In this document: piece after piece, positions 26,233 through 56,744 of the stretch
How the letters are laid out: the number at the start of each line of letters is the position of its first letter
How positions within the stretch are numbered: position 1 is the stretch's first letter
Assembly (NCBI GenBank): GCA_963711735.1
Contig: CAVQFA010000003.1
Coordinates: forward strand, 470,966 to 534,965
DNA: 64,000 bases
Direction: 5' to 3'
Source: Candidatus Gottesmanbacteria bacterium
Lineage (GTDB): Bacteria > Patescibacteriota > Microgenomatia > UBA10105 > UBA927
Notes under the pieces: model-generated
Databases searched by the model: none
Seen by the model: the letters and a program-made list of their open reading frames with translations, nothing else
What the model was told of the DNA's origin: nothing
Program-made: the position numbers and the translations under genes

Positions 26233-26242
26233 ATGATAATGT

Positions 26243-27811: not shown

Positions 27812-27814
27812 TGT

Positions 27815-29074
27815 ATGAGTGCAGAACATAAAATATTGGTAATCGGTTCAGGTGGCAGGGAAGATGCAATCGGAAGGAAATTGATGCGTGAAGCAAGGCT
27901 TTTTTTTGCACCGGGAAACGGCGGGACGGCAGGCATCGGAAAGAATATTGATATTGGTGTAAATGATGTAGACAAGCTGTCCCGGTTTGCATCCGACAAC
28001 GTGATTGATTTAACCATAGTCGGACCGGAAGGACCATTATCAGAAGGAATCGTTGACGCGTTTGAGGAAGACGGTCTTGCTATCTTCGGTCCTTCAAAAG
28101 CTGCAGCCCGGCTCGAGTCAAGTAAACTCTGGAGTTCAAAGTTTATGGTAAGACACTCCATACCCTCTGCACAATTCCGGGAATTTCAAAATCCTGAAGA
28201 TGCGCTTCATTTTGTCAACCGGGTAGGATTTAAAAACACCGTCATTAAAGCCGACGGTTTATGTGCGGGCAAGGGTGTGGTTCTGCCGAATTCCACAGGG
28301 GAAGCAGAAACAGCAATACTGGGAATGTTGTCGGGTAAGGATTTTGGCACAGCCGGGAAAACAATTCTTATACAGGAGCGGTTAAAAGGCCCGGAAATAT
28401 CAGTAATGGCTATAAGCGACGGAAAAGTAGTTGTTCCCCTTCTGCCGGCGCGCGATCATAAGCGCGTCTTCGACGGGGATAAGGGACCCAATACCGGCGG
28501 AATGGGTGCGTACGCACCGGTGCCGGATGTAACGACCGGAATGCTGCAGGATATATATGAGCACATACTTCTTCCGACGGTATCAGGAATGTATGAAGAA
28601 GGAATACCGTATAAAGGGGTTTTGTATGCCGGGCTTATGCTTACAGCGGACGGTCCGAAAGTCCTTGAGTATAATTGCCGTCCCGGAGATCCGGAGACCC
28701 AGCCTCTCATGACCTTATTGCAGTCAGAATTGGCACCGGTTTTATTATCCTCGATTAAAGGAACATTGAAAAAATCACAGATCAAATTCAGGTCCGGTTA
28801 TTCTGTCTGTGTGGTTTTAACATCAGGCGGATATCCGGGTAGGTATGCATCCGGTGAGGTTGTTCACGGTGCAACCGGACAATATGAGAATACCGAAATA
28901 ATCCATGCCGGTACTTCTTACAGAGACGGATTGCTGGTTACATGCGGCGGAAGGGTATTAGGTGTGACGTCGTATGGTAAAACCCTAAAGGAAGCTGCCC
29001 GGAGAGCATATTCGGTAATCGGAACAAGCGTATATTTTAAAGGTATGCATTACCGGTCTGATATTGCCGCATAA
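27815..29074 (+). CDS. purD: phosphoribosylamine-glycine ligase
   Basis: KILVIGSGGREDAIG N-terminus and ATP-grasp fold. Confidence 0.9.
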   Translation: MSAEHKILVIGSGGREDAIGRKLMREARLFFAPGNGGTAGIGKNIDIGVNDVDKLSRFASDNVIDLTIVGPEGPLSEGIVDAFEEDGLAIFGPSKAAARLESSKLWSSKFMVRHSIPSAQFREFQNPEDALHFVNRVGFKNTVIKADGLCAGKGVVLPNSTGEAETAILGMLSGKDFGTAGKTILIQERLKGPEISVMAISDGKVVVPLLPARDHKRVFDGDKGPNTGGMGAYAPVPDVTTGMLQDIYEHILLPTVSGMYEEGIPYKGVLYAGLMLTADGPKVLEYNCRPGDPETQPLMTLLQSELAPVLLSSIKGTLKKSQIKFRSGYSVCVVLTSGGYPGRYASGEVVHGATGQYENTEIIHAGTSYRDGLLVTCGGRVLGVTSYGKTLKEAARRAYSVIGTSVYFKGMHYRSDIAA

Positions 29075-29076
29075 AT

Positions 29077-32043
29077 ATGACAAGGCGACTCTTTATTACG
29101 AGTAAAATTTCTGACAGCAGGGTAGGTCCTCTTAAACAAAAAATTATTGATATCGACGGAGATATCGGTCATTTAGAAATTGCAGTTGCGGATGTGTATA
29201 CCTTTACCAAAAAATTTACCCAAAAACAATGGCAGCGTGTGAGTTCCGTATTGGTAAATCCTGTTACGCAAACTGCAAATACGGATGTATTAAAAGAAGG
29301 TAAAATAATCGATTGGACTCTGGAGATAGGATTTTTACCCGGTGTTACCGATAACGTTGCCGCCACGGTAAGAGAAATGATCCGGGATCTGCTGAAAGTT
29401 AATTTTCTGCAAGACGAAAATATCTTTACCAGTACGCTTATGGTATTTTCCGGAAAAATCCGGAAAGGTGCGATTGAACGATTTGCAGACAGCCAATATA
29501 ATCCTTTGATCCAGTATGTCAGGGTGCTGCCATATGACGAGTTTAAAATCACCAAGCCATATGTGCCTAAAGTACATATTACCCAGTCTGTTAAAACAAA
29601 TACGGTTAACCTGAATGTCAGCAACGAAGAACTTATACAAATAGGTAAGGAAGGCATAAAAGGTGAAAACGGTGTTGCAAGGGGCCCGCTGGCATTGGAT
29701 CTTATATCATTCCGGGCAATCAGAGATTATTTCAGGAAACAGGGAAGGAATCCGACGGATATTGAACTGGAATCTATAGCCCAGACCTGGAGCGAACACT
29801 GCAAGCACACAATATTTTCCGATCCCATAGACAATTTGGATAACGGTCTTTTCCGTACGTATATTAAGCGTGCAACAGAAAAGATACGGAAAAGCTTGGG
29901 AAAGGATGACTTTTGTGTGAGCGTATTTACCGATAATTCCGGAGCGATACGATTTGACGGGAAATATCTCATCACGCACAAAGCAGAAACTCACAACAGC
30001 CCTTCAGCACTGGATCCTTTCGGAGGTGCGATTACCGGCATTGTTGGTGTTAACCGTGATGCGATAGGGTTTGGATTGGGAGCAAAACCAATAGCTAATA
30101 CGTACGGATATTGTGTTGCGGATCCCAATGACAGGGAACCACTTTATAAAGACAAAGACAGAAAAGTTAAGATGCTTTTCCCCCGGAGAATTCTGGACGG
30201 AATTGTTAAAGGAGTCAACTCAGGAGGCAACTGTTCCGGTATACCGACCATGTCGGGATTTGTTTACGTTGACGGGAGATATAAAGGTAAGCCGCTCGTT
30301 TTTGTAGGAACTGTAGGTCTTATACCCGGGAAGGTAAAAAACAGAAAAATGTACGAGAAACGTGCCCACCCGGGAGATCTTATCGTTATGGTCGGCGGAC
30401 GTGTCGGACTTGACGGTATACACGGTGCGACCTTTTCATCAGAGGCACTCTCCACAGGCAGTCCGTCGACTGCTGTCCAGATCGGAGACCCCATAACACA
30501 GAAAAAAATGAGTGATGCTCTTATCAAGGAAGCGAGAGATAAAGTTCTCTTTACCAGCATAACGGATAACGGTGCAGGCGGACTGTCCTGTTCGGTAGCT
30601 GAGATGGCTAAAGAGTCAGGCGGATGCTTGGTAAACCTGGATTTGGTTCCTCTCAAATATCCGGGATTAATGCCTTGGCAAATTTGGATATCAGAAAGTC
30701 AGGAGAGGATGACTCTCGCAGTTAACCCCCGAAAATGGAAAACGCTAAAAAAACTTCTGGATAAAAGGGCAGTTGAAGGGACAATTATAGGAAAATTCAA
30801 TAATTCCGGAAGATGCTCTGTGTTCTACCGGAAAAAGAAAATCATGGATGTAGACATGAAATTTCTTCATGACGGTCTTCCGAAACGCAGACAGAAATCC
30901 CGGTATATCAAAAGTGTTTTTACTGATCCTGCATTACCCGACGATCGTCACTTAACTCAGGTTTTCGAAAATATGCAAAAAAGATACAACGTGTCCGGTT
31001 ACGGATATATTTCCGGTCAATATGACCATGAAGTGCAGGGAACATCAGTGACCAAGCCATTACAGGGACGCGGAAGGGTGAATGCTGACGCGATAGTAGT
31101 CCGTCCGTTACCGGATGGTTTTCGGGGATTAGTATTAAGCCAGGCATTATATCCTTCATACAGCGAGATTGATCCGTATCGGATGGCTGCATGTTCAATC
31201 GATACGGCAATAAGAAACATTGTTTCTGCCGGAGGGGATCCTGCCCGGTGTGCGCTTCTCGATAATTTTTGCTGGTGCAGTTCGAGAGACCCGGTGAGAC
31301 TCTGGCAACTGAAAGAGTCCGCCAAAGCCTGCTTTGATACTGCTGTATGTTTCAGAACACCCTTTATATCCGGCAAAGACAGTATGTTTAATGATTTCCG
31401 TGGGTTTGATGAGTCAGGAAAAAGTGTAAACATATCTGTGCTTCCGTCGCTTCTGATTTCGTCGATATCTATAATTCCCGATATCCGTCATTCAGTGACG
31501 CTGGATTTTAAATTTCCCGGTGATCTTATCTATATCGTCGGATCCACTTTTGAAGAATTGGGAGGTTCAGAATATTATGCGTATTTGTCCGGTCAGCGGA
31601 AACGGTTCTCTCCGGGTACAAATGTACCCCGGGTGGATTGTCAGAAGAATATCAAAATTTATAATTCGGTTTTTACCGGAATCTGCAAAGATCTTATATC
31701 GTCCGCAACGAGTATCCATAGGGGCGGATTGGCATCATCCTTATGCAAATCCGCAATCGGAGGACATGTGGGATTTGAGGTAGACCTTAACAAACTCAAA
31801 GGCAAGTGTAAAAGAAATGACAGTTTACTTTTTTCAGAAACACAAGGCAGATTTCTCCTGTCAGTAAATCCGGCGAAAAAGCGAATGTTTGAAAAATTAT
31901 TTCATGACACGGATTATTCATTTGCAGGGCGGGTCAGGGAAGACACAAAGGGAATTATAAACGGTATTTCCGGGAAAACGATTATAAACACCGACGTCAG
32001 GCGATTAGAGAAGTTATATAAATCCAAATTCAATAATTTCTGA
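29077..32043 (+). CDS. purL: phosphoribosylformylglycinamidine synthase, large synthetase component with PurS-like N-terminal domain and no glutaminase domain
   Basis: 988 aa. AIR-synthase-related duplicated domains. The N-terminal roughly 170 aa resemble the N-terminal domain of large PurL. The glutaminase is encoded separately downstream. Confidence 0.8.
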   Translation: MTRRLFITSKISDSRVGPLKQKIIDIDGDIGHLEIAVADVYTFTKKFTQKQWQRVSSVLVNPVTQTANTDVLKEGKIIDWTLEIGFLPGVTDNVAATVREMIRDLLKVNFLQDENIFTSTLMVFSGKIRKGAIERFADSQYNPLIQYVRVLPYDEFKITKPYVPKVHITQSVKTNTVNLNVSNEELIQIGKEGIKGENGVARGPLALDLISFRAIRDYFRKQGRNPTDIELESIAQTWSEHCKHTIFSDPIDNLDNGLFRTYIKRATEKIRKSLGKDDFCVSVFTDNSGAIRFDGKYLITHKAETHNSPSALDPFGGAITGIVGVNRDAIGFGLGAKPIANTYGYCVADPNDREPLYKDKDRKVKMLFPRRILDGIVKGVNSGGNCSGIPTMSGFVYVDGRYKGKPLVFVGTVGLIPGKVKNRKMYEKRAHPGDLIVMVGGRVGLDGIHGATFSSEALSTGSPSTAVQIGDPITQKKMSDALIKEARDKVLFTSITDNGAGGLSCSVAEMAKESGGCLVNLDLVPLKYPGLMPWQIWISESQERMTLAVNPRKWKTLKKLLDKRAVEGTIIGKFNNSGRCSVFYRKKKIMDVDMKFLHDGLPKRRQKSRYIKSVFTDPALPDDRHLTQVFENMQKRYNVSGYGYISGQYDHEVQGTSVTKPLQGRGRVNADAIVVRPLPDGFRGLVLSQALYPSYSEIDPYRMAACSIDTAIRNIVSAGGDPARCALLDNFCWCSSRDPVRLWQLKESAKACFDTAVCFRTPFISGKDSMFNDFRGFDESGKSVNISVLPSLLISSISIIPDIRHSVTLDFKFPGDLIYIVGSTFEELGGSEYYAYLSGQRKRFSPGTNVPRVDCQKNIKIYNSVFTGICKDLISSATSIHRGGLASSLCKSAIGGHVGFEVDLNKLKGKCKRNDSLLFSETQGRFLLSVNPAKKRMFEKLFHDTDYSFAGRVREDTKGIINGISGKTIINTDVRRLEKLYKSKFNNF

Positions 32044-32044
32044 T

Positions 32045-32848
32045 ATGTCAGACAAACCAAAAGTTATCATTATCGGCGGATACGGATTCAACTGCGAAGA
32101 GGAAACAAAATTTGCATTTGATCTGGCAGGCGCCGCATCGGACATTGTGCATATAAATGATTTGATATCCGACCGGAAAATTCTCGGCAGGTACAGGATT
32201 TTGGTAATTCCCGGTGGATTTTCGTACGGTGATGATACCGGTTCCGGTAATGCCATGGCAATGAAGATGAGAAATCATCTGTCAGACGACCTCATGACAT
32301 TTATATCAAAGGACCGATTGGTTTTAGGGATCTGTAACGGTTTTCAGGTTCTCATCAACGCAGGACTGCTACCCGGTTTTAAAGGCCGAAACGGTGAAAG
32401 ATCAGCAGCTCTTGTTTCGAACAAGTCAAACAGATACATTGTCAGGTGGACGGATTTACAAATTTATGGCAAAAGTCCGTGGATTACAGGAATCAAAAGT
32501 ATATCTTTACCGATAGCACACGGCGAAGGACGTTTTATCGTTTCAGCTGATGTTATGACCAAGTTAAAGAAAAACAAGCAAATCACAATGAAATATGTGA
32601 AAGGGGAATACTGCAGATACTTTAATCTGCCTGCAAATCCCACCGGAACAACCGGGGGTATCGCGGCTGTCACTGACCAAACCGGACGGATACTGGGAAT
32701 GATGCCGCATCCTGAAAGGGCGGTATTTTTTACACATTTACCTGACTGGACGTACAGGAAAGAATTGTTATTACGAAACGGCGGAAAAATTCCGGTGTTT
32801 GGTCCCGGTATGAAAATTTTTACAAATGCGGTTGCATACTTTCATTAA
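32045..32848 (+). CDS. purQ: FGAM synthase glutaminase subunit (class I GATase)
   Basis: VIIIGGYGFNCEEE N-terminus and the LGICNGFQVL catalytic Cys. Confidence 0.85.
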   Translation: MSDKPKVIIIGGYGFNCEEETKFAFDLAGAASDIVHINDLISDRKILGRYRILVIPGGFSYGDDTGSGNAMAMKMRNHLSDDLMTFISKDRLVLGICNGFQVLINAGLLPGFKGRNGERSAALVSNKSNRYIVRWTDLQIYGKSPWITGIKSISLPIAHGEGRFIVSADVMTKLKKNKQITMKYVKGEYCRYFNLPANPTGTTGGIAAVTDQTGRILGMMPHPERAVFFTHLPDWTYRKELLLRNGGKIPVFGPGMKIFTNAVAYFH

Positions 32849-32858
32849 GGAGGCATGT

Positions 32859-34133
32859 ATGATTCATGTAATAGTCGGTGCACAGTGGGGTGATGAAGGC
32901 AAAGGCAAGATTGTGGATTATTTATCCCGGAAAGCAGACTGTGTCGTGCGTTTTCATGGTGGGAACAATGCAGGACACACGATAGTAAACAGTTTCGGCA
33001 AATTTCCCCTCCATTTGATCCCCGGAGGAATATTTCATACCCGATGCAGGATATTCATAACAGGAGGGACGATTCTGGATCTTGATGTGCTGACGGAAGA
33101 AATCAGAATGCTTTCGGAAGTTCTGCCTGATTTTATCGGAAGGGTTTTCATATCTCCCATGTGTCACCTCATCTTGCCGTATCATAAATTACTTGACACA
33201 CTCCTGGAGGAAGCGAAGGGCAAATTCAGAACCGGTACGACAGGCCGGGGAATAAGCCCTACGTATGCTGATAAGGTTTCCTATAACGGAATCAGACTTT
33301 TTGATTTATCAGACAAAAACGTGTTTCGGGAAAAACTGAAAATTCAGCTTATTGTGAAGAATAAAATCATCTCGTCATTAGGTCACGATCCGTTGGAGCT
33401 TGAGCCAATATATAAAAATACGTATAAAAAGTACCAATTAATCAAAAAAATGGTTAAAGATACGTTCAGGCCTTTACAGGAAAGCATACACAAGAATAAA
33501 TATATTCTTTTCGAAGGAGCACAGGGAATATTTCTTGATAACGACTGGGGTACGTATCCGTATGTGACTGCGTCAAATTGTATTTCCGGAAATATCCATG
33601 CGGGAGCCGGGGTTTATCCGGGACTTATAAACAGGGTAACGGGTATTTCTAAAGCCTATACGACCCGCGTGGGGGAAGGACCGTTTCCGACTGAACTGAC
33701 TGATCATATCGGAGATAATATCAGATCAGTCGGATCCGAATACGGTGCAACAACCGGACGACCCAGAAGATGCGGTTGGCTGGATCTGGTAATGCTCAAA
33801 TTTGCCTGCCGGTTAAACGGTTTTACGGATTTGGTCATCACTAAAATGGATGTTTTGGATAAATTTAAGGAAATAAAAGTCTGTATAGGTTATACATTAA
33901 ACGGAAAAAAAGTGGATTATTTCAATTGTGACGCCCAGATGCTGACGGGAGTCAAGCCTGTTTATAAAATTTTGAAAGGATGGAATAAAAACCTGAAATC
34001 AGCAGTGAAATATACGGACTTGCCAAAAGAAGCCATCAGATATATCAACGAAATTACACGGTATACCGGTGTTCCGGTATCAATTATTTCCGTCGGGCCC
34101 GAGAGAAACAAGACGATATCCGTAAACGGATAA
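32859..34133 (+). CDS. purA: adenylosuccinate synthetase
   Basis: MIHVIVGAQWGDEGKGK P-loop N-terminus. SD AAGGAGG 6 nt upstream of the ATG at 32859. Confidence 0.9.
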   Translation: MIHVIVGAQWGDEGKGKIVDYLSRKADCVVRFHGGNNAGHTIVNSFGKFPLHLIPGGIFHTRCRIFITGGTILDLDVLTEEIRMLSEVLPDFIGRVFISPMCHLILPYHKLLDTLLEEAKGKFRTGTTGRGISPTYADKVSYNGIRLFDLSDKNVFREKLKIQLIVKNKIISSLGHDPLELEPIYKNTYKKYQLIKKMVKDTFRPLQESIHKNKYILFEGAQGIFLDNDWGTYPYVTASNCISGNIHAGAGVYPGLINRVTGISKAYTTRVGEGPFPTELTDHIGDNIRSVGSEYGATTGRPRRCGWLDLVMLKFACRLNGFTDLVITKMDVLDKFKEIKVCIGYTLNGKKVDYFNCDAQMLTGVKPVYKILKGWNKNLKSAVKYTDLPKEAIRYINEITRYTGVPVSIISVGPERNKTISVNG

Positions 34134-34145
34134 ATAACAATAATT

Positions 34146-35543
34146 ATGGATTATTCTACATACAATTCTCCTTTATCATGGAGATACGGGTCATCACCGA
34201 TGAGACGGATATTCTCGGAAAAACACAAATATGAGTTATGGCGGAAAATCTGGGTGGCACTCGCGAAAGCCCATCATAAAGCCGGTCTGGTAAGCCAATC
34301 AGAGTTAAATGATCTTATAGGAAAAGAAAGCAATATAGATATAGAAAAAATTCTGGAAATCGAGAAACAGACCGGACATGATGTGGTTGCTGCAATCCGG
34401 GAATTCGCACTCACGGCAAAAAAAGGCGGAGGCAAGATACACCTGGGAGCAACCAGTATGGATATTGTGGATAACGCCGAATCGATACGCATAATCGAGG
34501 CTCTGGATCTCGTCCGATCGGCGTGTCTGGAATTACTGAAATTATTCTCAGCAAAAATTATCAAGTACAAAGACACGGTATGTCTCGGGTACACACATCT
34601 CCAGCCTGCGGAACCGACGACTGTCGGATACCGATTGGCTTTTTACGCTCAGGATCTGCTTATTGATTTCCGGATGCTTAGATATATAGAAAAACAAATT
34701 CAGGTAAAAGGATTCAAAGGTGCTGTGGGCACATCAGCAAGTTACGCAAAGCTATTGACAGGTTCGTCTATGACACCCTATACAATGGAAAAAATGGTGA
34801 CTGACGAGCTGGGAATTAAACCTTTTATTGTTACCTCGCAGGTCAGCAGCAGAAAAATTGATTATCTGGTATTAACACTTCTGTCATCAATCGGGTCAAC
34901 GCTGTCCAAATTTGCGGCAGATTTACGGATTCTGCAGTCTCCCATGTTCGGTGAATGGAGTGAACCTTTTGGCAGTTCACAGGTCGGATCATCTGCTATG
35001 CCGTATAAGAAAAATCCGGTTTCAGCTGAAAAAATCTGTTCACTTGCCAGATATCTTATCAGTTTGCCGGCTGTGGTTCTGGAAAATGCATCACTCTCGC
35101 ATCTTGAAAGGACACTTGATGATTCCGCAAACAGAAGAATAATCTTTCCCACTGCGTTTTTAACTTTGGATGAAATAGTTAGTACCGCTCAAAAAATCCT
35201 CAAAGGTCTTGTTGTAAATGAAAAAAGGATTACTCATAACCTCAATGTATACGCTCCGTTTTTGGCAACCGAAGCTGTACTTATGGAATCTGTAAAGAAA
35301 GGTGCTGACCGGCAGAAAATGCATGAGATTTTACGAAAATTATCATTAAAAGCCTGGGAAGAGGTCATCACCGGAAGACCAAATCCATTATTGGAATTGA
35401 TGAAGTCTGATTCACGAATTCTTCGGTATATTAAGAAAGAAAATATCAATAAAGTCGCAGACGTTTCGACTCATACCGGCGATGCCGGAAAAAGGGGAAT
35501 GACGTTAATTTCACAAATACAAAAGGAGGTTATCAGTGTATGA
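34146..35543 (+). CDS. purB: adenylosuccinate lyase
   Basis: Fumarate-lyase family signature region (SSAMPYKKNP). 465 aa. Confidence 0.85.
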   Translation: MDYSTYNSPLSWRYGSSPMRRIFSEKHKYELWRKIWVALAKAHHKAGLVSQSELNDLIGKESNIDIEKILEIEKQTGHDVVAAIREFALTAKKGGGKIHLGATSMDIVDNAESIRIIEALDLVRSACLELLKLFSAKIIKYKDTVCLGYTHLQPAEPTTVGYRLAFYAQDLLIDFRMLRYIEKQIQVKGFKGAVGTSASYAKLLTGSSMTPYTMEKMVTDELGIKPFIVTSQVSSRKIDYLVLTLLSSIGSTLSKFAADLRILQSPMFGEWSEPFGSSQVGSSAMPYKKNPVSAEKICSLARYLISLPAVVLENASLSHLERTLDDSANRRIIFPTAFLTLDEIVSTAQKILKGLVVNEKRITHNLNVYAPFLATEAVLMESVKKGADRQKMHEILRKLSLKAWEEVITGRPNPLLELMKSDSRILRYIKKENINKVADVSTHTGDAGKRGMTLISQIQKEVISV

Positions 35544-36064
35544 AAAAACCACTCGTTTCCGTCGTTATGGGAAGTGATTCTGATATTCCTGTCATGAAAG
35601 AAGCAATTGATGTTTTACATCAGTTTGAGATAAGCCATGAGATATTTATTCTGTCTGCCCACAGGTGTCCCGACCAGACTGCAGAATTTGCCAAAAGAGC
35701 CATCCAGAGAGGAATTAAAGTGATTATTGCCGGAGCCGGCGGGGCAGCACATCTTGCCGGAATAATAGCAGCCAACACTGCTCTTCCCGTTATCGGGATT
35801 CCGGTTTTATCAAAAAGCCTCAGCGGAATTGACTCTCTGTATTCTACGGTTCAGATGCCTCCCGGAGTACCGGTTGCGACCGTTGCAATAAACGGTGCAA
35901 AAAATGCAGGATTACTCGCCATACAAATATTGGCGTTAAGTATGCCAAAACTTCAGAAAAAATTTGCGAATTACAAAAAAGATCTTGGTAAATCAGTGAT
36001 TTCCAAATCTGAAGAGCTAACGCGTATCGGTTGGCAAAAATATCTCAAACAGAAAGGAATATAA
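35540..36064 (+). CDS. purE: 5-(carboxyamino)imidazole ribonucleotide mutase / AIR carboxylase catalytic subunit
   Basis: SVVMGSDSDIPVMKEA and AGGAAHLAG motifs. Confidence 0.9.
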   Translation: MKKPLVSVVMGSDSDIPVMKEAIDVLHQFEISHEIFILSAHRCPDQTAEFAKRAIQRGIKVIIAGAGGAAHLAGIIAANTALPVIGIPVLSKSLSGIDSLYSTVQMPPGVPVATVAINGAKNAGLLAIQILALSMPKLQKKFANYKKDLGKSVISKSEELTRIGWQKYLKQKGI

Positions 36065-36067
36065 AGT

Positions 36068-37033
36068 ATGGTGAATAAAAATACTATTATTGAATCCATT
36101 CCCAAATGTCTTAAAACAGTAAATATCGTAGGTTCAGGTAGAAAATTCCGGGGAAAAGTCAGGGATTATTATATAACCGGCGATAAACGGATTATGATTA
36201 CCACCGACCGCCAGTCTGCATTTGACGTCAATTTGGGTTATATACCGTTTAAAGGTGCGGTTCTCAACCAACTTTCAGCGTTCTGGTTTGCAAAAACGAA
36301 ACACATCGTAAAAAATCATCTGATTACCGTTACTCATCCGAATGTCATGATTGTCCGTAATTGTAAACCGATTCCCATAGAAATGATTGTCCGCGGATTT
36401 ATATCAGGCGTAACTAAAACGTCAATCTGGTATTCGTATAGTAAAGGTGAGAGATTGATTTACGGTCTGACATTTCCTGATGGTCTCAGAAAAAACCAGC
36501 AGCTTCCAAAACCGGTTATTACTCCGACTACACATGGTGGCGGGAAAGGCGGTCATGACGAACGCTTGACCAAAGAAGAGATTATTAAGCGCCGTATTGT
36601 TGATAAGAAATTATACGAACAGATGGAAAAGGCAGCTTTAGCACTCTTTCATTACGGCAGCAGACTTTGTATGGAAAGAGGATTGATTTTAGTGGACACG
36701 AAGTATGAATTTGGTCTCTATAACGGGAAACTTACTCTGATGGACGAAATTCACACACCGGACTCATCCCGGTTCTGGATAGAAAAGACGTATCTTTCCC
36801 GGTTTGAAAAAGGACAGGAACCGGAAAATTACGATAAGGAATTCCTGCGGTTGTGGTATAAAGAGCGGGGATTTTCCGGTGAAGGTAAACCTCCTGAGAT
36901 GACGGGCAAACTCATAGTCGATCTCGCAAAGAGGTACGTGAATGTTTACGAAATACTGACCGGTAAAATTTTTAAACCATACAAGTATCCCATCAATGAT
37001 GAGATTGCAAAAACTTTGAAACGTATTTTGTGA
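36068..37033 (+). CDS. purC: SAICAR synthetase (long form)
   Basis: GKVRDYY...ITTDRQSAFDV and LSAFWF motifs characteristic of PurC. Confidence 0.85.
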   Translation: MVNKNTIIESIPKCLKTVNIVGSGRKFRGKVRDYYITGDKRIMITTDRQSAFDVNLGYIPFKGAVLNQLSAFWFAKTKHIVKNHLITVTHPNVMIVRNCKPIPIEMIVRGFISGVTKTSIWYSYSKGERLIYGLTFPDGLRKNQQLPKPVITPTTHGGGKGGHDERLTKEEIIKRRIVDKKLYEQMEKAALALFHYGSRLCMERGLILVDTKYEFGLYNGKLTLMDEIHTPDSSRFWIEKTYLSRFEKGQEPENYDKEFLRLWYKERGFSGEGKPPEMTGKLIVDLAKRYVNVYEILTGKIFKPYKYPINDEIAKTLKRIL

Positions 37034-37050
37034 AACGGTTCACATAATGC

Positions 37051-38157
37051 ATGAAAACCAAACATATTTCCTACAGTCATGTCGGTGACAACTATCATAC
37101 CAAAGATCCGATAAAAAAATTTGCACAGGCGTCAGCAGCAAAAACCGGCAGCAATCTGAAATTTCATAAATTTATGGAAATATCCGATACGAGAGGTGAA
37201 TCGGCGTATGTGTGGAAGCAGGGGAAAATTTTCATGGCGTCGGTTATCGAAGGACTTGGTTCCAAGAATCTTGTTGCAGATTCGGTATATTTGTTAACCG
37301 GAAAATCTTATTACGATCATATCGCTCATGATACGGTAGCAACCATCATTAATGATCTGATTTCAACTGGAGCTACACCTCTGGTTATACATGCATATTG
37401 GGCAGTTGAGGATAACAGGTGGTTTAATGATCTCAAAAAAGTTCGAGATTTGGTGAGAGGTTGGAAATCGGCGTGTGATGAAGCGCGCGTTTCCTGGGGC
37501 GGGGGAGAAACCCCGACGCTCAAAGGCATCATTGTTCCCGGTACAATTGAACTTGGAGGATCTGCAGTCGGTACCATCAAATCACCTAAAAGACTAATAA
37601 CTGACAGAAAGTTATTATCCGGTGACCGGATACTTTTCGTTCAAAGCGCCGGTATCAATGCCAATGGGTTGTCCCTTGCACGGGCTGTCGCAGGAGAGCT
37701 TTCAGATGGGTACCGAACAAAAATTAACAAATCAAAATCATTCGGAGAAGCGCTTCTTACGAAATCACATATTTATGCCGGTCTTCTGGAGAAATTATCC
37801 GAAGGAGGAGTGAATCTTCACTACATATCACACATCACAGGGCATGGTTTGAGAAAAATCATGCGTGCCAGAAAGGAATATTCATACATAATAGAAAACA
37901 TTTTTGATCCACAGGAAGAATTTTTATTTATCCAAAAACATGCGGGTCTCTCTGACCGGGAAATGTACGGGACATTTAATATGGGTATGGATTATGCGTT
38001 GTTTTTACCCGGGAAAGATATTGATAACGCACAAAAAATAATACGTGCTGCCGGATATAATAGTATCCCGGCCGGGTACGTCAGTCGTGGCAGAAGACGC
38101 GTTATTATAAAACCTAAAAATATTGAATATGCGTCAGACGAACTGGACTTGAGATAA
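37051..38157 (+). CDS. purM: AIR synthetase (phosphoribosylformylglycinamidine cyclo-ligase)
   Basis: Blocks conserved with E. coli PurM: EGLGSKNLVA, WGGGETP, AGINANGLSL, HITGHG, MYGTFNMG. Confidence 0.8.
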   Translation: MKTKHISYSHVGDNYHTKDPIKKFAQASAAKTGSNLKFHKFMEISDTRGESAYVWKQGKIFMASVIEGLGSKNLVADSVYLLTGKSYYDHIAHDTVATIINDLISTGATPLVIHAYWAVEDNRWFNDLKKVRDLVRGWKSACDEARVSWGGGETPTLKGIIVPGTIELGGSAVGTIKSPKRLITDRKLLSGDRILFVQSAGINANGLSLARAVAGELSDGYRTKINKSKSFGEALLTKSHIYAGLLEKLSEGGVNLHYISHITGHGLRKIMRARKEYSYIIENIFDPQEEFLFIQKHAGLSDREMYGTFNMGMDYALFLPGKDIDNAQKIIRAAGYNSIPAGYVSRGRRRVIIKPKNIEYASDELDLR

Positions 38158-42376: not shown

Positions 42377-43588
42377 CTATTCGTATCGGATCGCTTCCAT
42401 AGGAGACAGTTCAGCTGCGCGTTTAGCCGGCATCACGCCAAACACAACCCCGACAAGTGAAGAGACCCCGAGTGCAACGATGACGGTTGTTGTATCGATA
42501 TACGCCGGAAACAGACTTTGCATAGCCAATACTATTACGTATGAAACGACAAGACCTAAAAATCCGCCAAAAATGGATAAAAGAACGGATTCAGCCAGAA
42601 ATTGATATAAAATGTCGCTTCTTCTTGCTCCTATTGCCCTTCTGATTCCGATCTCGCGGATCCGTTCCACTACGGAAACATACATGATATTCATAATTCC
42701 TACCCCGCCCACAACGAGGGATATTGCCGCTATCGCAACAAGTATGGTATTTAAAATATTAAAAATGGAATTGATTGTGTTGAGAATTTCAGTCGGTTCA
42801 ATAACAGAAAATTCGTCTGTTTTGTAGCGCTTCAGAAGAATTTTTTTGGCATCGGTCTTGATTTGGGCCATCGAATCTTCTGAATCGGCTTTAATATAGA
42901 TTGCATAGTAGGTTTTATCCGGATTGAAACTGGATGCAGCTTTAACCGGTATATATACATGTTCATCTACACTGGGAGTACCTAATCCACCGCCTCCGCC
43001 TTTGGATACGGCAACACCGACTACCCGGAATGCCTGTGTTTCAATTTTTATGATTTTACCCAAAGCATCGTCAGCAGTTCCGAACAGCTGTTCGGCAGTT
43101 TTTGATCCGAGAACTGCCACTTTTGCGCCTTTATCGGCGTCGCTTTTTTCAAACAACCGGCCAATGTCCGCTTCAATGTTCATCACGGGAAACATATCTG
43201 CTGTTGATGCAGCGATTTCGACGGATTTTGAGTCTATCTGACCCTGAATTTTAGAAAATTTTATGAAAAAAGGTACCGTGTATTCGGAATTTTTAATTTT
43301 TTTAAGTGATGCTACATCTTTATCGTCAAAACGGATTCCACCTACCATACTGCCACCCATTCCGCTCATATCCCCTCCGGACATATCTCCCGGCATGATA
43401 AATACGGTATTAGAACCCATACTTTCGAATTGTTGCTGGATATAACGTTTAAGCCCCAGACCCATTGCTATCAGAAGAACGACTGAGGAAATGCCGATAA
43501 ATATGCCAAGCGATGTAAGAAAGGTACGCAGTTTATTGCGACGGAAATCATCCAACGCTGTTTTTATGATAAACGTAAAATTATTCAT
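42377..43588 (-). CDS. ABC transporter permease, MacB/FtsX-like family
   Basis: N-terminal TM, a large periplasmic domain and the C-terminal FtsX 3-TM module. Confidence 0.8.
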   Translation of the reverse strand: MNNFTFIIKTALDDFRRNKLRTFLTSLGIFIGISSVVLLIAMGLGLKRYIQQQFESMGSNTVFIMPGDMSGGDMSGMGGSMVGGIRFDDKDVASLKKIKNSEYTVPFFIKFSKIQGQIDSKSVEIAASTADMFPVMNIEADIGRLFEKSDADKGAKVAVLGSKTAEQLFGTADDALGKIIKIETQAFRVVGVAVSKGGGGGLGTPSVDEHVYIPVKAASSFNPDKTYYAIYIKADSEDSMAQIKTDAKKILLKRYKTDEFSVIEPTEILNTINSIFNILNTILVAIAAISLVVGGVGIMNIMYVSVVERIREIGIRRAIGARRSDILYQFLAESVLLSIFGGFLGLVVSYVIVLAMQSLFPAYIDTTTVIVALGVSSLVGVVFGVMPAKRAAELSPMEAIRYE

Positions 43589-45959: not shown

Positions 45960-47084
45960 ATGAAAAAAACAGCAAGTTCCCAACAAAACAAAGTAAAAAA
46001 GTCCGTTTCACGCGCACATAAGGCTGCTTTAGGGGAGCCATATATGCCCGTTGGTAATGATAAGGAAGAAACGTTTATTTCAACTCCTCCTTCCAACAAA
46101 AAAAGCCCGGTTCCGATCATATTAACTCTTATTCTTGTAGGGGGATTGCTTTGGATGGGGATGACGAAAAGATCCCTTGATAGTTTGGTTACGATGAAAA
46201 ATAAGACAATTCCTGATGCAGTACAGAAGGTAACCGGCGGATCAGCTAAGGTCAAAGAGATTGCAAATTTGAAGGAAGTGAGCGGTGTATATGAATTTGA
46301 ACTTAATTTGGATTCTAACGGGCAAGTGAATAAATACACATCATATATCACAAAAGACGGAAAGATACTTTTCGTTTCCGGTACCAAACTCACGGATTTG
46401 GATAAAAAAGCAAACACTACTGCGCAGCCTGAAACGAAGAAATTAAGCTGTGCGGATGTAAAGAAAGCTGATCTGCCGAAAGTAACTGCATATGTTGTTG
46501 CCAATTGTCCGTATGGTCTTCAGATGCAGCGTGCCATGAAAAAAGCAATAGAAGAGCAACCTGAGCTTTCAGAATATCTGAACGTCAGGTATCTGGGAAG
46601 CATACAGAACGGAAAAATTACATCAATGCACGGCGACGAAGAAGCAGTTGAAAACCATCGACAGATATGCATAAGGGAAGAACAACCCGCACTCTATTGG
46701 CCGTATGTTTCGTGTTACATGAAAAAAGCCGGTGAATCAGCATCTTGTCTTGTTTCATCAGGAATAAACGCGACGCAACTCTCTTCATGCATGAGTGATG
46801 CGAAGCGCGGTTTGGCATACGCTGCGAAGGATTTTGAACTTGCGGATAAATTCCAAATTGCAAGTTCTCCGACGCTTTTAGTAAATGACGAACAGATAGT
46901 ATCTGAGAATGATTTCGGAGGCAGGACGCCGAACGCATTAAAAGAATTGTCCTGCTGCGGTGCAAATACAAAAGGGGCATATTGCACGAAAAATCTCACA
47001 ACGGATTCGGCAGCTGTGGCATTCTCTGAAACGGATGTTCAAACAGGAGGATCCCAGTCGGCAGTAAATTGTAATCCGCAATGA
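45960..47084 (+). CDS. membrane-anchored thioredoxin-fold (DsbA-like) protein, tentative
   Basis: N-terminal TM, then a C-terminal domain with a CPYG dithiol-like motif and several conserved Cys. Low similarity. Confidence 0.35.
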   Translation: MKKTASSQQNKVKKSVSRAHKAALGEPYMPVGNDKEETFISTPPSNKKSPVPIILTLILVGGLLWMGMTKRSLDSLVTMKNKTIPDAVQKVTGGSAKVKEIANLKEVSGVYEFELNLDSNGQVNKYTSYITKDGKILFVSGTKLTDLDKKANTTAQPETKKLSCADVKKADLPKVTAYVVANCPYGLQMQRAMKKAIEEQPELSEYLNVRYLGSIQNGKITSMHGDEEAVENHRQICIREEQPALYWPYVSCYMKKAGESASCLVSSGINATQLSSCMSDAKRGLAYAAKDFELADKFQIASSPTLLVNDEQIVSENDFGGRTPNALKELSCCGANTKGAYCTKNLTTDSAAVAFSETDVQTGGSQSAVNCNPQ

Positions 47085-52109: not shown

Positions 52110-52613
52110 ATGAACAAGGTCAACGTGCAAACTCAGATACATCCGTCAAGTGCGGGAGTTGTGCCGAAAGAAGCACCGCTTGTTCAAAGTATTGACACAC
52201 GTGATCCTGATGCGATCAAAGCAGGTATTTCTATGAAAAAAACTATTTTTGCAGTATATATTGTGCTCATTGTGTTAGGAGTTGGTACGGGCTATTTGCT
52301 CTCCAGAGGAACAGGATCATCCAAAAATGCTCCTGTTACGGGTTCAATGCTGACAACAGGATCTGCGGTGGGGATTAGCGATGAAACGACATTTAAAGAT
52401 TCCGCTGAGGGCACTATTGAAGCCGGTGGTGCAGACGGAGAGGGGACTCATAAACTGATCAGAGACGGCGGGCCTTCCCAGACTGTATATCTTATATCGT
52501 CTGTTGTTGATCTGGACGAATTTATCGGGAAAAAAGTTAAAGTATGGGGTCAAACTCAGGCAGCAAAAAGTGTAGCATGGCTCATGGATGTAGGAAAAGT
52601 TGAGCTTAAATGA
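52110..52613 (+). CDS. hypothetical membrane-anchored protein
   Basis: A TM helix (IFAVYIVLIVLGVGTGYLL) after about 40 aa. The start may be the internal Met. Confidence 0.4.
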   Translation: MNKVNVQTQIHPSSAGVVPKEAPLVQSIDTRDPDAIKAGISMKKTIFAVYIVLIVLGVGTGYLLSRGTGSSKNAPVTGSMLTTGSAVGISDETTFKDSAEGTIEAGGADGEGTHKLIRDGGPSQTVYLISSVVDLDEFIGKKVKVWGQTQAAKSVAWLMDVGKVELK

Positions 52614-52616
52614 ACA

Positions 52617-53390
52617 ATGATACGTTACGACAAAGTATCCAAACAATACGGGCAATTACAGCCGGCATTATCCGATATTTCTCTTGAAATTGCGGATGGT
52701 GAATTTGTTTTTTTAATCGGTCCGTCAGGAGCAGGAAAAACAACAGTACTACGTCTTCTTACCCGTGATCTTGACCCAACGAGCGGAAGTATTTTTGTAG
52801 ATGAGGAAGATATTTCAACGATCCGATCAAAAAGTATATACCTCCTTCGGAGAAAAATAGGAATGATTTTCCAGGACTTTAAACTTCTTTCCGAACGTAC
52901 AGTATACGAAAATGTTGCGATACCTTTGGAAATACTAGGGAAAAAGGAAGATGAAGTCAAAAAATCAGTAGAAAAAATTCTGGATATCGTCGGGCTTTCC
53001 AAAAAAACAAATCTGTTTCCTCAACAATTATCTGCAGGAGAAATGCAAAGGACGAGTATTGCGCGATCTCTTGTGGGCGGACCCAAGGTGCTTCTCGCTG
53101 ATGAACCGACCGGAAATCTGGACCCTGAGACTGCTTGGGGAATTCTTAAAATATTAAGCGAAGTCAATTCAATCGGTACGACGATAATCATGGCAACACA
53201 CAATACCACCATAGTAAATGATATGAAAAAAAGGACTATTACCATTCATGACGGAATGATAGTGAGAGACGAAACACACGGTAAGTATCATACGGGGAAT
53301 GATAAACATGACGAAGATAATGGTTCGGATGTAAAAAATCATGAACACGAAAACCATCATAAGGAGAAAAAACACCATGGGAATTCGTAA
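52617..53390 (+). CDS. ftsE: cell division ATP-binding protein FtsE with a His-rich C-terminal tail
   Basis: Near-colinear with E. coli FtsE (MIRYDKVSKQY..., Walker A/B, LSAGEMQR). The extra C-terminal tail HGKYHTGNDKHDEDNGSDVKNHEHENHHKEKKHHGNS is unusual. Confidence 0.9.
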   Translation: MIRYDKVSKQYGQLQPALSDISLEIADGEFVFLIGPSGAGKTTVLRLLTRDLDPTSGSIFVDEEDISTIRSKSIYLLRRKIGMIFQDFKLLSERTVYENVAIPLEILGKKEDEVKKSVEKILDIVGLSKKTNLFPQQLSAGEMQRTSIARSLVGGPKVLLADEPTGNLDPETAWGILKILSEVNSIGTTIIMATHNTTIVNDMKKRTITIHDGMIVRDETHGKYHTGNDKHDEDNGSDVKNHEHENHHKEKKHHGNS

Positions 53391-54273
53391 AACCACCTGG
53401 CATCATATCAGAAGGTCACCATTTCATGCATTTGCAGCGATTGTAACTATTTTTATAACGTTTCTTCTCGGAGGTGTGTTTTTGCTTTTAACAACTGCAT
53501 CTGTTGAAATACTTGCATATTTTGAAAGCAAACCCCAAATAACCGTGTTTTTTTCGGATTCCGCAACCATGGAAACGGTAGATAAGATGAAAAAAACGCT
53601 TTTGGACACAGGTATGACATCCTCACTTGTCTACGTATCGAAAGATCAGGCATTAGCGCTGTATAAAAGCCAGTATAAAGATGATCCTTTACTTCTGGAA
53701 ATGGTGACTGCTGACATTCTTCCCGCATCTTTGGAAGTGACAGCAAAGGAACCGTCGTTTCTTAAAGAGCTTGAACCGATCATAAAAAAATCTGAAGGAA
53801 TAGAGGATATTGCATATCAGAAAGATGTTGTTGACGCTCTTGTCATTTGGACACGTGCAATACGGATAACCGGTATCATTTTAGCCGGAATGCTCATGCT
53901 TGATTCACTCCTTATCATAATGACTGTCATCGGACTGAATATTGCCATCCGGAAAGATGAAATAGAAATATTAAAGCTGGTAGGCGCAAGCCCGTCATAC
54001 ATCCGTATACCATTTCTTCTTGAAGGAGTTTTCTATGGATTTTCCGGATCAGTGCTGGCAGCAGTTGTAGTTTTAGGAACGGTTTATGCAACACTTCCGT
54101 ATATCGGGACATTTTTAGGAGCAATACCTTCCATAAGTTCGCTTCTCACACAACCATTTTCACAAACTTCGATTCTGTATGCAGGAGTCTTTGCAGGAAT
54201 ATTACTTTCAAGCGGAAGCATCCTCGGACTTATCGGTAGCGCCGTATCAATCGGACGATATCTCAAATTTTAG
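53377..54273 (+). CDS. ftsX: cell division permease FtsX
   Basis: SD AAGGAG 10 nt upstream of the ATG at 53377. N-terminal TM, periplasmic domain and C-terminal 3-TM FtsX module. Confidence 0.85.
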   Translation: MGIRKTTWHHIRRSPFHAFAAIVTIFITFLLGGVFLLLTTASVEILAYFESKPQITVFFSDSATMETVDKMKKTLLDTGMTSSLVYVSKDQALALYKSQYKDDPLLLEMVTADILPASLEVTAKEPSFLKELEPIIKKSEGIEDIAYQKDVVDALVIWTRAIRITGIILAGMLMLDSLLIIMTVIGLNIAIRKDEIEILKLVGASPSYIRIPFLLEGVFYGFSGSVLAAVVVLGTVYATLPYIGTFLGAIPSISSLLTQPFSQTSILYAGVFAGILLSSGSILGLIGSAVSIGRYLKF

Positions 54274-54287
54274 TGTATTTTCCTATC

Positions 54288-55433
54288 ATGGTCATACGCA
54301 GGCTATTCATTCTTATTTTTTGTATTTTTGTGCTGGAATTTTCCGCACTGCATATCCACGCACAGACAACATCCGATACGGATAAGCGTATTGAGGAGTT
54401 AAAAGCGAAAGTCGCAGAACTTCAGGGTACTGCAAATACGCTGACAAAAGAAATTACCATCAGAAATAACCAGATCGCAATGATCAGTTTACGTATAGAG
54501 TCCATGCGGTCGGCAATATCCAAACTTACAGCAGAAGCTGATCAATTAGCCGGGGAGATTGATAGAATCGAGACACTCCTGACACGAAGGACAGAACTTG
54601 TTCTTAAGCGGATTCCGGAATCTTACATGCGTTCGAGTGCATCACAATTCGGGATGATATTTTTCAGCAGGGATTTCAACGATTTTATCGCAAAAGTGGA
54701 ATATATTTCGCTTGTTCAGAAACAGGATACACACCTCATGCTACAGCTGAAAGCAACGCAAAACAACTTTGAAGAGCGGAAAAATCTCCGGGAAGAGAAA
54801 AAAATTGAAAAACAAACGCTTCAGACACAACTTGAAGCAGAAAGTCTGGAGTTAGAACGGACACAGAAAGAGAAACAACACCTTCTGGATCAAACAAGGT
54901 CAAGCGAAGCTGTATATCAACAATTGTTGTCTCAGGCCTTAGCTGAACGACAAGCACTGGAACGGGCTCTTGTTGAAGGAGTACAGATTGGACCGATCAA
55001 AAAAGGAGATCCTATAGCTCTCGTTGGGAACACTGGATATCCGGGATGTTCGACAGGCCAGCACTTACATTTTGAGGTACGGAATAATAATGTTTGGACT
55101 GATCCGTCTCAATATCTGCAAAATAAAACCGTCAATGACGAACAGAACGGAGGCACTTGGAATGTGGGGTCAGGAAGTTGGGATTGGCCGATTGCAGATA
55201 CCGTCAGGATTACACAGCACTATGGTAAGACACCCTATTCATGGAGGTATGCGTATTCAGGAGGAATGCATACGGGTTTTGACATGATATCCACATCAGG
55301 CGATATAATCCGTGCTCCGAGCGACGGAACTCTGTATTCATCAAGTCAGGCATGCGGAAGCGGAAGCATCATAAAAATAAAATATATTGATCACGGGGGC
55401 GGACTCGTTTCGTTTTTCCTGCATGTTCAATAA
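54288..55433 (+). CDS. secreted coiled-coil M23/LytM peptidase (EnvC/PcsB-like FtsEX partner) with apparently circularly permuted M23 domain
   Basis: Signal peptide, then about 200 aa of coiled coil. The M23 C-terminal subdomain comes next (GDPIALVGNTGYPGCSTGQHLHFEV), followed by the M23 N-terminal subdomain (GGMHTGFDM...GDIIRAPSDGTLY...IDHGGGLVSFFLHV). Confidence 0.7.
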   Translation: MVIRRLFILIFCIFVLEFSALHIHAQTTSDTDKRIEELKAKVAELQGTANTLTKEITIRNNQIAMISLRIESMRSAISKLTAEADQLAGEIDRIETLLTRRTELVLKRIPESYMRSSASQFGMIFFSRDFNDFIAKVEYISLVQKQDTHLMLQLKATQNNFEERKNLREEKKIEKQTLQTQLEAESLELERTQKEKQHLLDQTRSSEAVYQQLLSQALAERQALERALVEGVQIGPIKKGDPIALVGNTGYPGCSTGQHLHFEVRNNNVWTDPSQYLQNKTVNDEQNGGTWNVGSGSWDWPIADTVRITQHYGKTPYSWRYAYSGGMHTGFDMISTSGDIIRAPSDGTLYSSSQACGSGSIIKIKYIDHGGGLVSFFLHVQ

Positions 55434-55455: not shown

Positions 55456-56325
55456 ATGGGACTGTATCGGTGGTTTTTTATATGCTTCATTCTCCTTACA
55501 TTATTTTTTTTGATATCCGACATTGCAGAAGCTGCATTCACACTGATTAAACCAAATCAGAGTGATATAAAGGATGCAGACGATTATTCCGTATCATTGG
55601 AATTTTCCATAGAACAGGCTGACGATACAAAGTATTATCTTCGCGGAGTTTTTTATAAGGAAGGGACCTCTGATTATTGCGGATATACCTGGAATGGGTC
55701 CGGTTGGTATAAAGGACCGTATACATCAGGTGACGGGTGGAAAAATTTTTTGCCGATTTCAATAAAAAACAGCACATGGTCAGGAATATTGAAATCCAAA
55801 ATTGATACAGGTGATTCGGGATGCAGGGAAAGCGGTGTTTATGGGTTTAAAATTGAACGGTTTACGGAATCCGGATCACCTAATTTTGACAACCAAAACG
55901 AAGTCAGGGTAAACATCATGATTCCGACTCCTACGCATACCCCTCAACCGACTCATACACCAATGCCGACAGATAAACCGACACCGACAGTAAAACCGGA
56001 TCCTTCGGCAACACCGACAACTGTGAAAGTTAATTCACTGATGACAAACGTCATAACAGGGATTCCGTCAAATACTCCGCGTATTTCTCCGATGGTATCA
56101 AAAGCAGACAAGGATCAAAACCATAATGACACGAAAAATTCTGAAGTTTCTGTGCTTGGATCTATGGATGATGGCATAGGCACGAATGCAAGTGAAAGTG
56201 GCTTTACGCGTTCCTCCGGAAAATATCTCGCAATTGCGCTCTCTTTTATAGGTTTAGGTTTCGCCATCCTGACGGGAGTGAGCGTGTGGCGGATTGCAGA
56301 CAAAAAAAGGCAGAGTATAATATAA
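55456..56325 (+). CDS. secreted protein with Pro/Thr-rich linker and C-terminal hydrophobic anchor plus basic tail
   Basis: Signal peptide. Linker PTPTHTPQPTHTPMPTDKPTPTVKPDPSATPTT. C-terminus LAIALSFIGLGFAILTGVSVWRIADKKRQSII. Confidence 0.5.
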   Translation: MGLYRWFFICFILLTLFFLISDIAEAAFTLIKPNQSDIKDADDYSVSLEFSIEQADDTKYYLRGVFYKEGTSDYCGYTWNGSGWYKGPYTSGDGWKNFLPISIKNSTWSGILKSKIDTGDSGCRESGVYGFKIERFTESGSPNFDNQNEVRVNIMIPTPTHTPQPTHTPMPTDKPTPTVKPDPSATPTTVKVNSLMTNVITGIPSNTPRISPMVSKADKDQNHNDTKNSEVSVLGSMDDGIGTNASESGFTRSSGKYLAIALSFIGLGFAILTGVSVWRIADKKRQSII

Positions 56326-56330
56326 CTCTT

Positions 56331-56744
56331 ATGAAGATTTCTATATATTGGATACCATCCGTATTTTGGATGTGTGTAATTTTCTTTTTTTCATCCAGAT
56401 CACGAATTCAGGTTGCTGATACGTACACTGTAAATTTCATCTTTTTTAAGACGTTGCATGTTTTAGAATATGCGTTATTGTTTCTTTTTAACACACGCGC
56501 TTTTCGGTATACATTTCCGGGAATTCGTCAGTCTTCACTGTATACCGCATCGTTTCTTGCCACAATCGGATTTGCGTTTACCGATGAGCTGCATCAGTTA
56601 TATGTTCCGACACGCGAAGGAAGGCTCCGTGATGTTATAATCGATGCCGGAGGAATATTGCTGTCATGGATGATTTTAACGTATATACTACCAAAAATGC
56701 CGAAGAAACTCAGAGACTTGGCTCACGTTTTGCATCTCATATAA
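56331..56744 (+). CDS. VanZ-like family membrane protein
   Basis: FTDELHQLYVPTREGRLRDVIIDAGGILL matches the VanZ family. The ORF is open from 56286, but Met 56331 was chosen. Confidence 0.6.
   Translation: MKISIYWIPSVFWMCVIFFFSSRSRIQVADTYTVNFIFFKTLHVLEYALLFLFNTRAFRYTFPGIRQSSLYTASFLATIGFAFTDELHQLYVPTREGRLRDVIIDAGGILLSWMILTYILPKMPKKLRDLAHVLHLI

Follow-up and report, generated by a model that had tools for sequence, protein, structure and literature searches.

The M23/LytM family is among the most studied groups of peptidoglycan hydrolases and regulators and includes lysostaphin, LytM, EnvC, NlpD, MepM and SpoIIQ; to our knowledge, cell division in the Candidate Phyla Radiation (CPR)/Patescibacteria is almost unstudied. 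EnvC, described in Escherichia coli, Vibrio cholerae and Pseudomonas aeruginosa (PDB 6tpi, 8tzl and 8hd0), combines an FtsEX-bound coiled coil with a LytM activator domain. It is reported that the LytM domain of E. coli EnvC is devoid of catalytic residues and acts solely as an amidase activator (PMC7668044). PcsB of Streptococcus pneumoniae, CwlO of Bacillus subtilis and RipC of Mycobacterium tuberculosis are hydrolases activated by FtsEX (PMC11627006). The gene described here lies at 54288-55433 on the + strand of a 64,000-nucleotide stretch of Candidatus Gottesmanbacteria bacterium DNA (assembly GCA_963711735.1, contig CAVQFA010000003.1, positions 470,966 to 534,965), and this whole stretch is called the window below. 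The gene directly follows ftsE and ftsX, and its product carries, behind a coiled coil, an M23/LytM domain that is almost certainly circularly permuted.

The canonical active M23 enzymes, such as LytM, lysostaphin, MepM, Csd3 and StM23, share with this domain the motifs HxxxD, YxH and HxH and the same secondary-structure elements. However, the two halves are reversed in our protein, its termini have moved beside the catalytic YxH strand, and it has a family-specific, co-occurring cysteine pair (C254/C356). The preliminary description of this DNA had proposed that the M23 blocks are swapped and that a profile search would return two partial matches in reversed order, and both Pfam and a custom hidden Markov model (HMM) returned this pattern. 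Pfam Peptidase_M23 (PF01551) matched the protein with 51.5 bits, against a cut-off of 28.7, in two partial stretches, the better of which places aa 236-273 on positions 62-96 of the 96-position profile, so that the profile end comes first. In phmmer alignments to the PDB chains 3slu, 9gy1, 6muk, 2hsi and 5kqb, residues 322-380 (HTGFD...FFLH) matched the first, HxxxD half and residues 235-273 (KKGD...GNTG...HLHFEV...DP) matched the HxH half, which comes second in those chains, while this search against PDB chains gave no chain colinear with the whole permuted protein. The custom HMM, which has 141 positions and was built from 40 canonical-order M23 domains, placed aa 237-279 of the native protein on positions 101-140 (51.4 bits, domain E-value 1.4e-17) and aa 291-380 on positions 6-90 (58.7 bits, 7.9e-20), so the two matches together cover 6-90 and 101-140 in reversed order. 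When the sequence was de-permuted in silico (aa 294-381 followed by 227-293), one colinear match to HMM positions 10-140 was obtained with 123.7 bits. The profile order HxxxD, YxH, HxH, which the preliminary description had named as evidence that would contradict it, was found as a colinear alignment in the de-permuted sequence and not in the native protein. Therefore, the ancestral C-terminus at DPSQYL is joined through a linker to the ancestral N-terminus at SWDWP.

The ancestral C-terminal half, which now comes first, is encoded at 54978..55124 on the + strand (aa 231-279) and consists of the beta-hairpin VQIGPIKKGDPIALVG, the loop GNTGYPGCSTG, the HLHFEV strand and DPSQYL. The linker (55125..55157, +; aa 280-290) connects DPxxYL at the old C-terminus with WxWP at the old N-terminus. 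It spans about 10-20 residues between DPSQYL and SWDWP, is modelled as a small beta-hairpin, and includes the least conserved part of the protein, aa 281-290. Its length varies within the family down to about 4 residues, and the spacing from HxH to HxxxD ranges from 47 to 86 residues with a median of 70. The ancestral N-terminal half, now last (55158..55430, +; aa 291-381), runs through SWDWP, HTGFD, IDHGGG and FFLH(379)VQ to the protein end. As the preliminary description had noted, the chain stops where a canonical domain would continue: the stop codon stands two residues past H379, the histidine of YxH, and the chain now enters the domain at the beta-hairpin which in canonical domains comes after the YxH strand. 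The other sequence motifs quoted in that description were also present. The homologous halves are thus reversed, the old termini are linked, the new termini fall at a single internal site and the order is kept among relatives, which are the features of a circular permutation.

The same block order was found in the relatives of the protein (group 1). A homologue search returned 1044 proteins, and in the 120 listed ones, with 58-69% identity, HxH preceded HxxxD in every case (120/120) and nearly all sequences ended in ...LHVQ. An exhaustive search with only the catalytic region gave the permuted order in 83 of the best 150 clusters at 50% identity, down to about 31% identity, almost always with the domain at the extreme C-terminus; canonical-order M23 proteins emerged only as two-stretch matches, from an E-value of about 1e-11. 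Moreover, a scan of GTDB species-representative genomes with a 14-sequence alignment matched 136 genomes, of which 80 loci were fetched; all 80 encode a full-length permuted protein, ending in LHVQ in 79 cases. These results bear on the possibility that a canonical M23 gene only seems rearranged, through an error of assembly, a frameshift or faulty gene calling. In favour of this possibility we can cite nothing beyond the general experience that metagenome-assembled genomes hold errors. The listed homologues come from independent projects (NCBI, JGI, ENA and Logan assemblies), the open reading frame (ORF) is uninterrupted, no M23 fragment is found downstream, and the next ORF is without a Pfam match. 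The arrangement is kept across independent assemblies and species genomes, and an artefact, which the preliminary description had considered as a ground for rejecting its reading, is hardly credible.

The homologue names derive from Candidatus Gottesmanbacteria, placed by NCBI in the Patescibacteria group, Microgenomates group. The named sources of the family comprise Gottesman-, Woese-, Roizman-, Collier- and Woykebacteria, Microgenomates, WWE3 and the "Patescibacteria group". Many of the fetched loci (among L001-L080) are titled "uncultured Gammaproteobacteria/Pseudomonadales"; this label was rejected, as these loci show full synteny with named Gottesmanbacteria loci. The set, which looks mislabelled, consists of dozens of bulk-submitted third-party (TPA) genome bins of CPR size, for example OZ246401.1, a complete chromosome of 938,475 bp.

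The AlphaFold model of the domain was a compact single chain (pLDDT 86, pTM 0.84). A sequential Foldseek comparison of this model with the PDB gave no M23 structure, and the best match had an E-value of 0.38, to lectins. A confident model can go together with a missing M23 match because order-dependent aligners would miss a permuted fold, and we would read this result as an effect of the changed chain order and not as evidence against an M23 fold. The domain is predicted to form a normal M23 active site within one chain, and would then be fully equivalent to canonical M23 domains in three dimensions. The alternative is that there is no intramolecular permuted fold, and that the halves complete each other in trans, as in a domain-swapped dimer, or that one half is vestigial. 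We consider this quite improbable: besides the compact single-chain model, the linker joins exactly the ancestral termini, even at its shortest, as it does in a true permutation, conservation is equal in both halves, and giant proteins of unrelated kinds carry the permuted unit as one module at the C-terminus.

All the catalytic ligands that the preliminary description had listed were recovered. The HxxxD motif, H328-T-G-F-D332, was aligned to the HxGxD of 3slu, 9gy1 and 2hsi; the HxH motif, H259-L-H261, to the HLH of solved M23 chains; and the third histidine, H379 (FFLHV), to ...YGHV and ...FCHL of 9gy1 and 2hsi. In 82 diverse group 1 domains, H259, H261, H328 and D332 were each found in 82/82 and H379 in 80/82, and all five residues were present in 109/109 sequences of a second group described below. 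From what is known of LytM and lysostaphin, we take H328, D332 and H261 (the second histidine of HxH) to be the zinc ligands, and H259 and H379 to be the catalytic histidines.

These residues are central to the question of whether the domain is itself an enzyme. It could instead act like EnvC, in which case the permuted LytM domain would not cut but would activate a separate amidase, as in the E. coli FtsEX-EnvC-AmiA/B system. The whole-protein structural matches are closest to EnvC in FtsEX complexes (8tzl_E and 6tpi_A), EnvC is the best NCBIfam match for the coiled coil, and such an activator is documented (PMC7668044). On the other hand, the five residues are near-invariant in about 190 diverse sequences, which is hard to explain without catalysis, and E. 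coli EnvC lacks them (PMC7668044), in line with the contrast to a degenerate EnvC drawn at the outset. The NCBIfam EnvC model (NF008644) reached 28.7 bits, far under its cut-off of 270, and the degenerate LytM domain that characterizes EnvC is not present in our protein. In addition, in a syntenic relative the homologous scaffold bears a CHAP hydrolase domain in its place. An activator role is therefore unlikely, and we consider that the permuted domain is probably an active, FtsEX-gated peptidoglycan hydrolase, with a predicted endopeptidase activity of its own, as in PcsB, CwlO and RipC.

The N-terminal part of the protein points to the architecture of the FtsEX partners, and the EnvC/PcsB-like coiled coil proposed in the preliminary description was borne out by the profile score, the model helices and the structural matches. 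A putative signal peptide or anchor (54288..54365, +; aa 1-26, MVIRRLFILIFCIFVLEFSALHIHA followed by Q), modelled as a helix at residues 2-22, is deduced from the hydrophobic N-terminus alone. It is followed by an antiparallel coiled-coil hairpin (54372..54977, +; aa 29-230), with model helices at 29-117 and 130-230. The hairpin tip is a CC_PcsB-like region at aa 91-163 with invariant Y113 and Y139, and Pfam CC_PcsB scored 25.4 bits, slightly below its cut-off of 27. An alanine-rich helix (aa ~191-230) directly precedes the catalytic domain, and within it aa 191-220 are the best-conserved non-catalytic segment, roughly equal to the catalytic core. The full-length AlphaFold model (pLDDT 83) contains the hydrophobic helix, the two long antiparallel helices and a beta domain at 232-380. 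Its top Foldseek matches in the PDB, a ranking that is dominated by the coiled coil and informative for architecture alone, were 8tzl_E (EnvC of the V. cholerae FtsEX complex) and 6tpi_A (E. coli EnvC with the FtsX periplasmic domain), together with PcsB (4cgk) and RipC in FtsEX-RipC (8idc_E, 8jia). In terms of the predicted structure, these top matches are the known set of FtsEX partners.

The comparison with these partners shows likenesses and differences on both sides. Our protein resembles EnvC in the coiled-coil hairpin of the model and in the ftsEX synteny. In EnvC, however, a catalytically dead LytM domain in colinear order activates amidases, while that of our protein is permuted and retains all five residues. 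PcsB, CwlO and RipC likewise join a coiled-coil scaffold, regulated in their case by FtsEX, to a catalytically competent C-terminal hydrolase domain, but in these three catalysis is by a cysteine-peptidase domain (CHAP or NlpC/P60), in contrast to the zinc M23 domain here. The alanine-rich helix of our protein has a parallel in PcsB, where an alanine-rich helix has been regarded as the equivalent of the restraining arm of EnvC. The NCBIfam PcsB model gave 25 bits against a cut-off of 450, and no NCBIfam model reached its cut-off for the permuted protein.

A second, more distant set of permuted proteins (group 2) was reached from a divergent member, P0239. It comprises about 108 EnvC-like proteins, which usually have a tail of about 14 residues with a cysteine past the terminal histidine. 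The group 2 gene also stands directly after ftsE-ftsX, in the order secA, M16 peptidase, prfB, ftsE, ftsX, gene, ctpA, pyrG, and its source lineage is tentatively Parcubacteria, from a single named relative of the neighbouring pyrG. In a genome labelled Parcubacteria (GCA_019347895.1; locus L083, 3359-4540), the protein in the same syntenic slot is PcsB-like and shares the coiled coil, but carries a CHAP domain in place of the permuted M23 domain, as P0422 also does. The order in this locus, namely prfB, ftsE, ftsX, the CHAP gene, ctpA, pyrG, response regulator and L27, is that of group 2, and the coiled coil of the CHAP protein is homologous to that of the permuted proteins (BLASTP E-value 4e-23, strongest at the hairpin tip). 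Judged from the sequences, this is an exchange of the catalytic module, permuted M23 or CHAP, on an FtsX-binding scaffold within the CPR. As the permuted M23 domain is swapped for CHAP on the same scaffold, it can be argued that the M23 module is the hydrolase. The permuted module is also found at the C-terminus of unrelated giant proteins of 1256-2492 aa, namely P0159 (1256 aa), P0210 (2174 aa) and P0274 (2492 aa, with an endonuclease/exonuclease/phosphatase domain); for these three, Pfam reports of the M23 domain only a fragment, which is below the gathering score in P0210. The module therefore behaves as an autonomous unit.

We propose that the protein is probably the extracytoplasmic FtsEX partner of a Microgenomates-type (CPR/Patescibacteria) bacterium, formed by a signal-anchored coiled coil and a permuted M23 zinc peptidase that is gated by FtsEX. 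The coiled-coil tip (aa ~91-163) would dock on the FtsX extracellular domains. The alanine-rich helix (aa ~191-230) may autoinhibit the M23 groove and is a candidate restraining element, and ATP-driven mechanotransmission by FtsEX would free the domain during division. The chain would pass from the beta-hairpin to the HxH strand and DPxxYL, continue over the short linker to WxWP and HxxxD, and end past the YxH histidine. In the model, the second coiled-coil helix runs straight into the hairpin beside the C-terminal H379 strand, and a separate restraining arm of about 50 residues, like the kinked helix of EnvC, has no counterpart. It is possible, although doubtful, that the permutation is adaptive, with the termini moved to the H379 strand and the last coiled-coil helix fused directly to the hairpin beside the active site, so that FtsEX gates catalysis by pulling or re-seating an active-site element and not by drawing a separate restraining arm out of the substrate groove. 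If so, FtsEX would be coupled to catalysis in a distinct way that dates back to the ancestor of much of the CPR, which would account for the fixed order in hundreds of lineages.

With respect to the origin of the domain, tandem-M23 proteins match the permuted query colinearly across the inter-domain junction, and their spacing from HxH to the next HxxxD, 62-78 residues, is close to the median of 70 in the permuted family. Because of this match and the similar spacing, the domain most likely arose by tandem duplication of M23, after which the N-half of the first copy and the C-half of the last were lost. The breakpoint is common to groups 1 and 2, which favours a putative single ancient permutation event without settling it. 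In a rough neighbour-joining tree of de-permuted and canonical domains, 75 of the 82 permuted sequences grouped into a single clade. The other seven, which are divergent and include the representative of group 2, had no resolved position, and the tree is too weak to decide between one and several origins. The nearest canonical or tandem relatives have two named sources, both Firmicutes, and are uninformative.

The cysteine pair of group 1 consists of C254, before HxH, and C356 in the other half. Both cysteines occur in 62 domains, neither in 15 and the first only in 5. A cysteine is rare at the first site in canonical domains: in 5/40, one occurs within the 8 residues ahead of HxH. This pattern suggests a C254-C356 disulfide that may staple the two halves together. 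Group 2 is without this pair and has two cysteines of its own, one of them in the C-terminal tail. As a separate observation, the window encodes at 45960-47084 a secreted protein with a weak thiol-reductase-like (GILT) resemblance.

Circular permutation has been described in another group of peptidoglycan hydrolases. It is reported that in the permuted NlpC/P60 families (YaeF/poxvirus G6R and LRAT-like) the catalytic residues are swapped in sequence order (PMC6403190). These families are a precedent, but they have an unrelated papain-like cysteine-peptidase fold and chemistry. Searches of the openly searchable full-text literature, with subscription papers and ECOD/CATH outside their scope, found no permuted M23/LytM domain, in agreement with the preliminary description, which knew of no such domain. 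The matches to "permut*" concerned NlpC/P60, PDZ, hybrid-barrel or statistical usage, and CPR-oriented queries returned nothing on permutation. The permuted M23 domain is apparently a previously unreported, lineage-wide rearrangement in a known family and a known FtsEX-partner architecture.

The permuted M23 protein appears to be the standard FtsEX partner in large CPR/Patescibacteria lineages. It offers a natural experiment: because the attachment point has moved beside the active site, the protein can show how the coiled-coil lever of FtsEX acts on its catalytic domain. It also indicates that FtsEX scaffolds swap their catalytic modules, such as permuted M23 and CHAP, even within the CPR. 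Moreover, it exposes a blind spot in annotation: Pfam reports fragments that are sometimes sub-threshold and Foldseek finds no M23 structure, so that too few of these enzymes are called, or they bear the name "EnvC activator". The naturally short linkers, together with the tandem relatives, provide a worked example of duplication and truncation, and could serve as a template for permuted lysostaphin-type enzybiotics.

The position of the gene directly after ftsE-ftsX, given in the preliminary description, agreed with the Pfam calls upstream of it, and the same adjacency was found in 68/75 related loci. The ORF extends from 54273 to 55433 on the + strand, or from 54288 if counted from the ATG, which yields 381 aa and a stop; this product is identical to the public protein P0001. 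The ftsX stop codon TAG is at 54271-54273, and the ATG at 54288 lies 15 nt downstream. The ftsE gene (52617..53390, +) encodes an ABC ATPase (Pfam ABC_tran, E-value 4.5e-35), and ftsX (53341..54273, +) an extracellular domain and permease (FtsX_ECD, 9e-16; FtsX, 1.2e-9). The ftsE ORF and the longest ftsX ORF overlap by 50 nt, or less if ftsX starts at 53377, and the C-terminus of FtsE is a tail rich in His, Asp and Lys that ends in ...HDEDNGSDVKNHEHENHHKEKKHHGNS. In seven of the 75 loci (L048, L061, L071, L076, L077, L078 and L080), the permuted M23 gene stands away from ftsEX; in L077, its neighbours are a flavin amine oxidase gene with a small ORF on one side and, on the other, an alpha/beta hydrolase gene, which is followed by a Mur ligase gene.

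Upstream of ftsE, between it and prfB, a small single-pass membrane protein of 167 aa is encoded at 52110..52613 (+). It has no Pfam family, occurs in the same place in about 70 of the 80 related loci, and may belong, so far unrecognised, to the Microgenomates FtsEX module. The prfB ORF looks contiguous, a programmed frameshift having been considered. Downstream of the permuted M23 gene, a 289-aa protein without a Pfam match is encoded at 55456-56325 (+), with an N-terminal signal or transmembrane segment, a Pro/Thr-rich linker (PTPTHTPQPTHTPMPTDKPTPT...) and a C-terminal transmembrane anchor. In about 20 of the 80 loci, such a Pro/Thr-rich surface protein is encoded directly 3' of the gene for the permuted M23 protein. 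In the window, the gene for the 289-aa protein is followed by a small membrane-protein ORF at 56286-56744 and, further downstream, by what look like tsaE and ORFs resembling tsaC and tsaB, names that were read from the sequences themselves.

Elsewhere, the window carries secA and genes for an Nramp transporter and a MacB-type permease. The permease, encoded at 42377-43588 (-), is a second one of the FtsX type, has a MacB periplasmic core domain as part of a MacB-like ABC system, and is distinct from the division ftsEX. At 15427-17742 (+), a class-I lysyl-tRNA synthetase (tRNA-synt_1f) of 771 aa has a C-terminal B3_4 domain, which is an unusual fusion. Finally, a near-complete cluster for de novo purine synthesis extends over 24068-38157 (+), with purF-like, purH, purD, purL, purA, purB, purC and purM-like genes, and stands out, since descriptions of CPR genomes usually state that nucleotide biosynthesis is absent.
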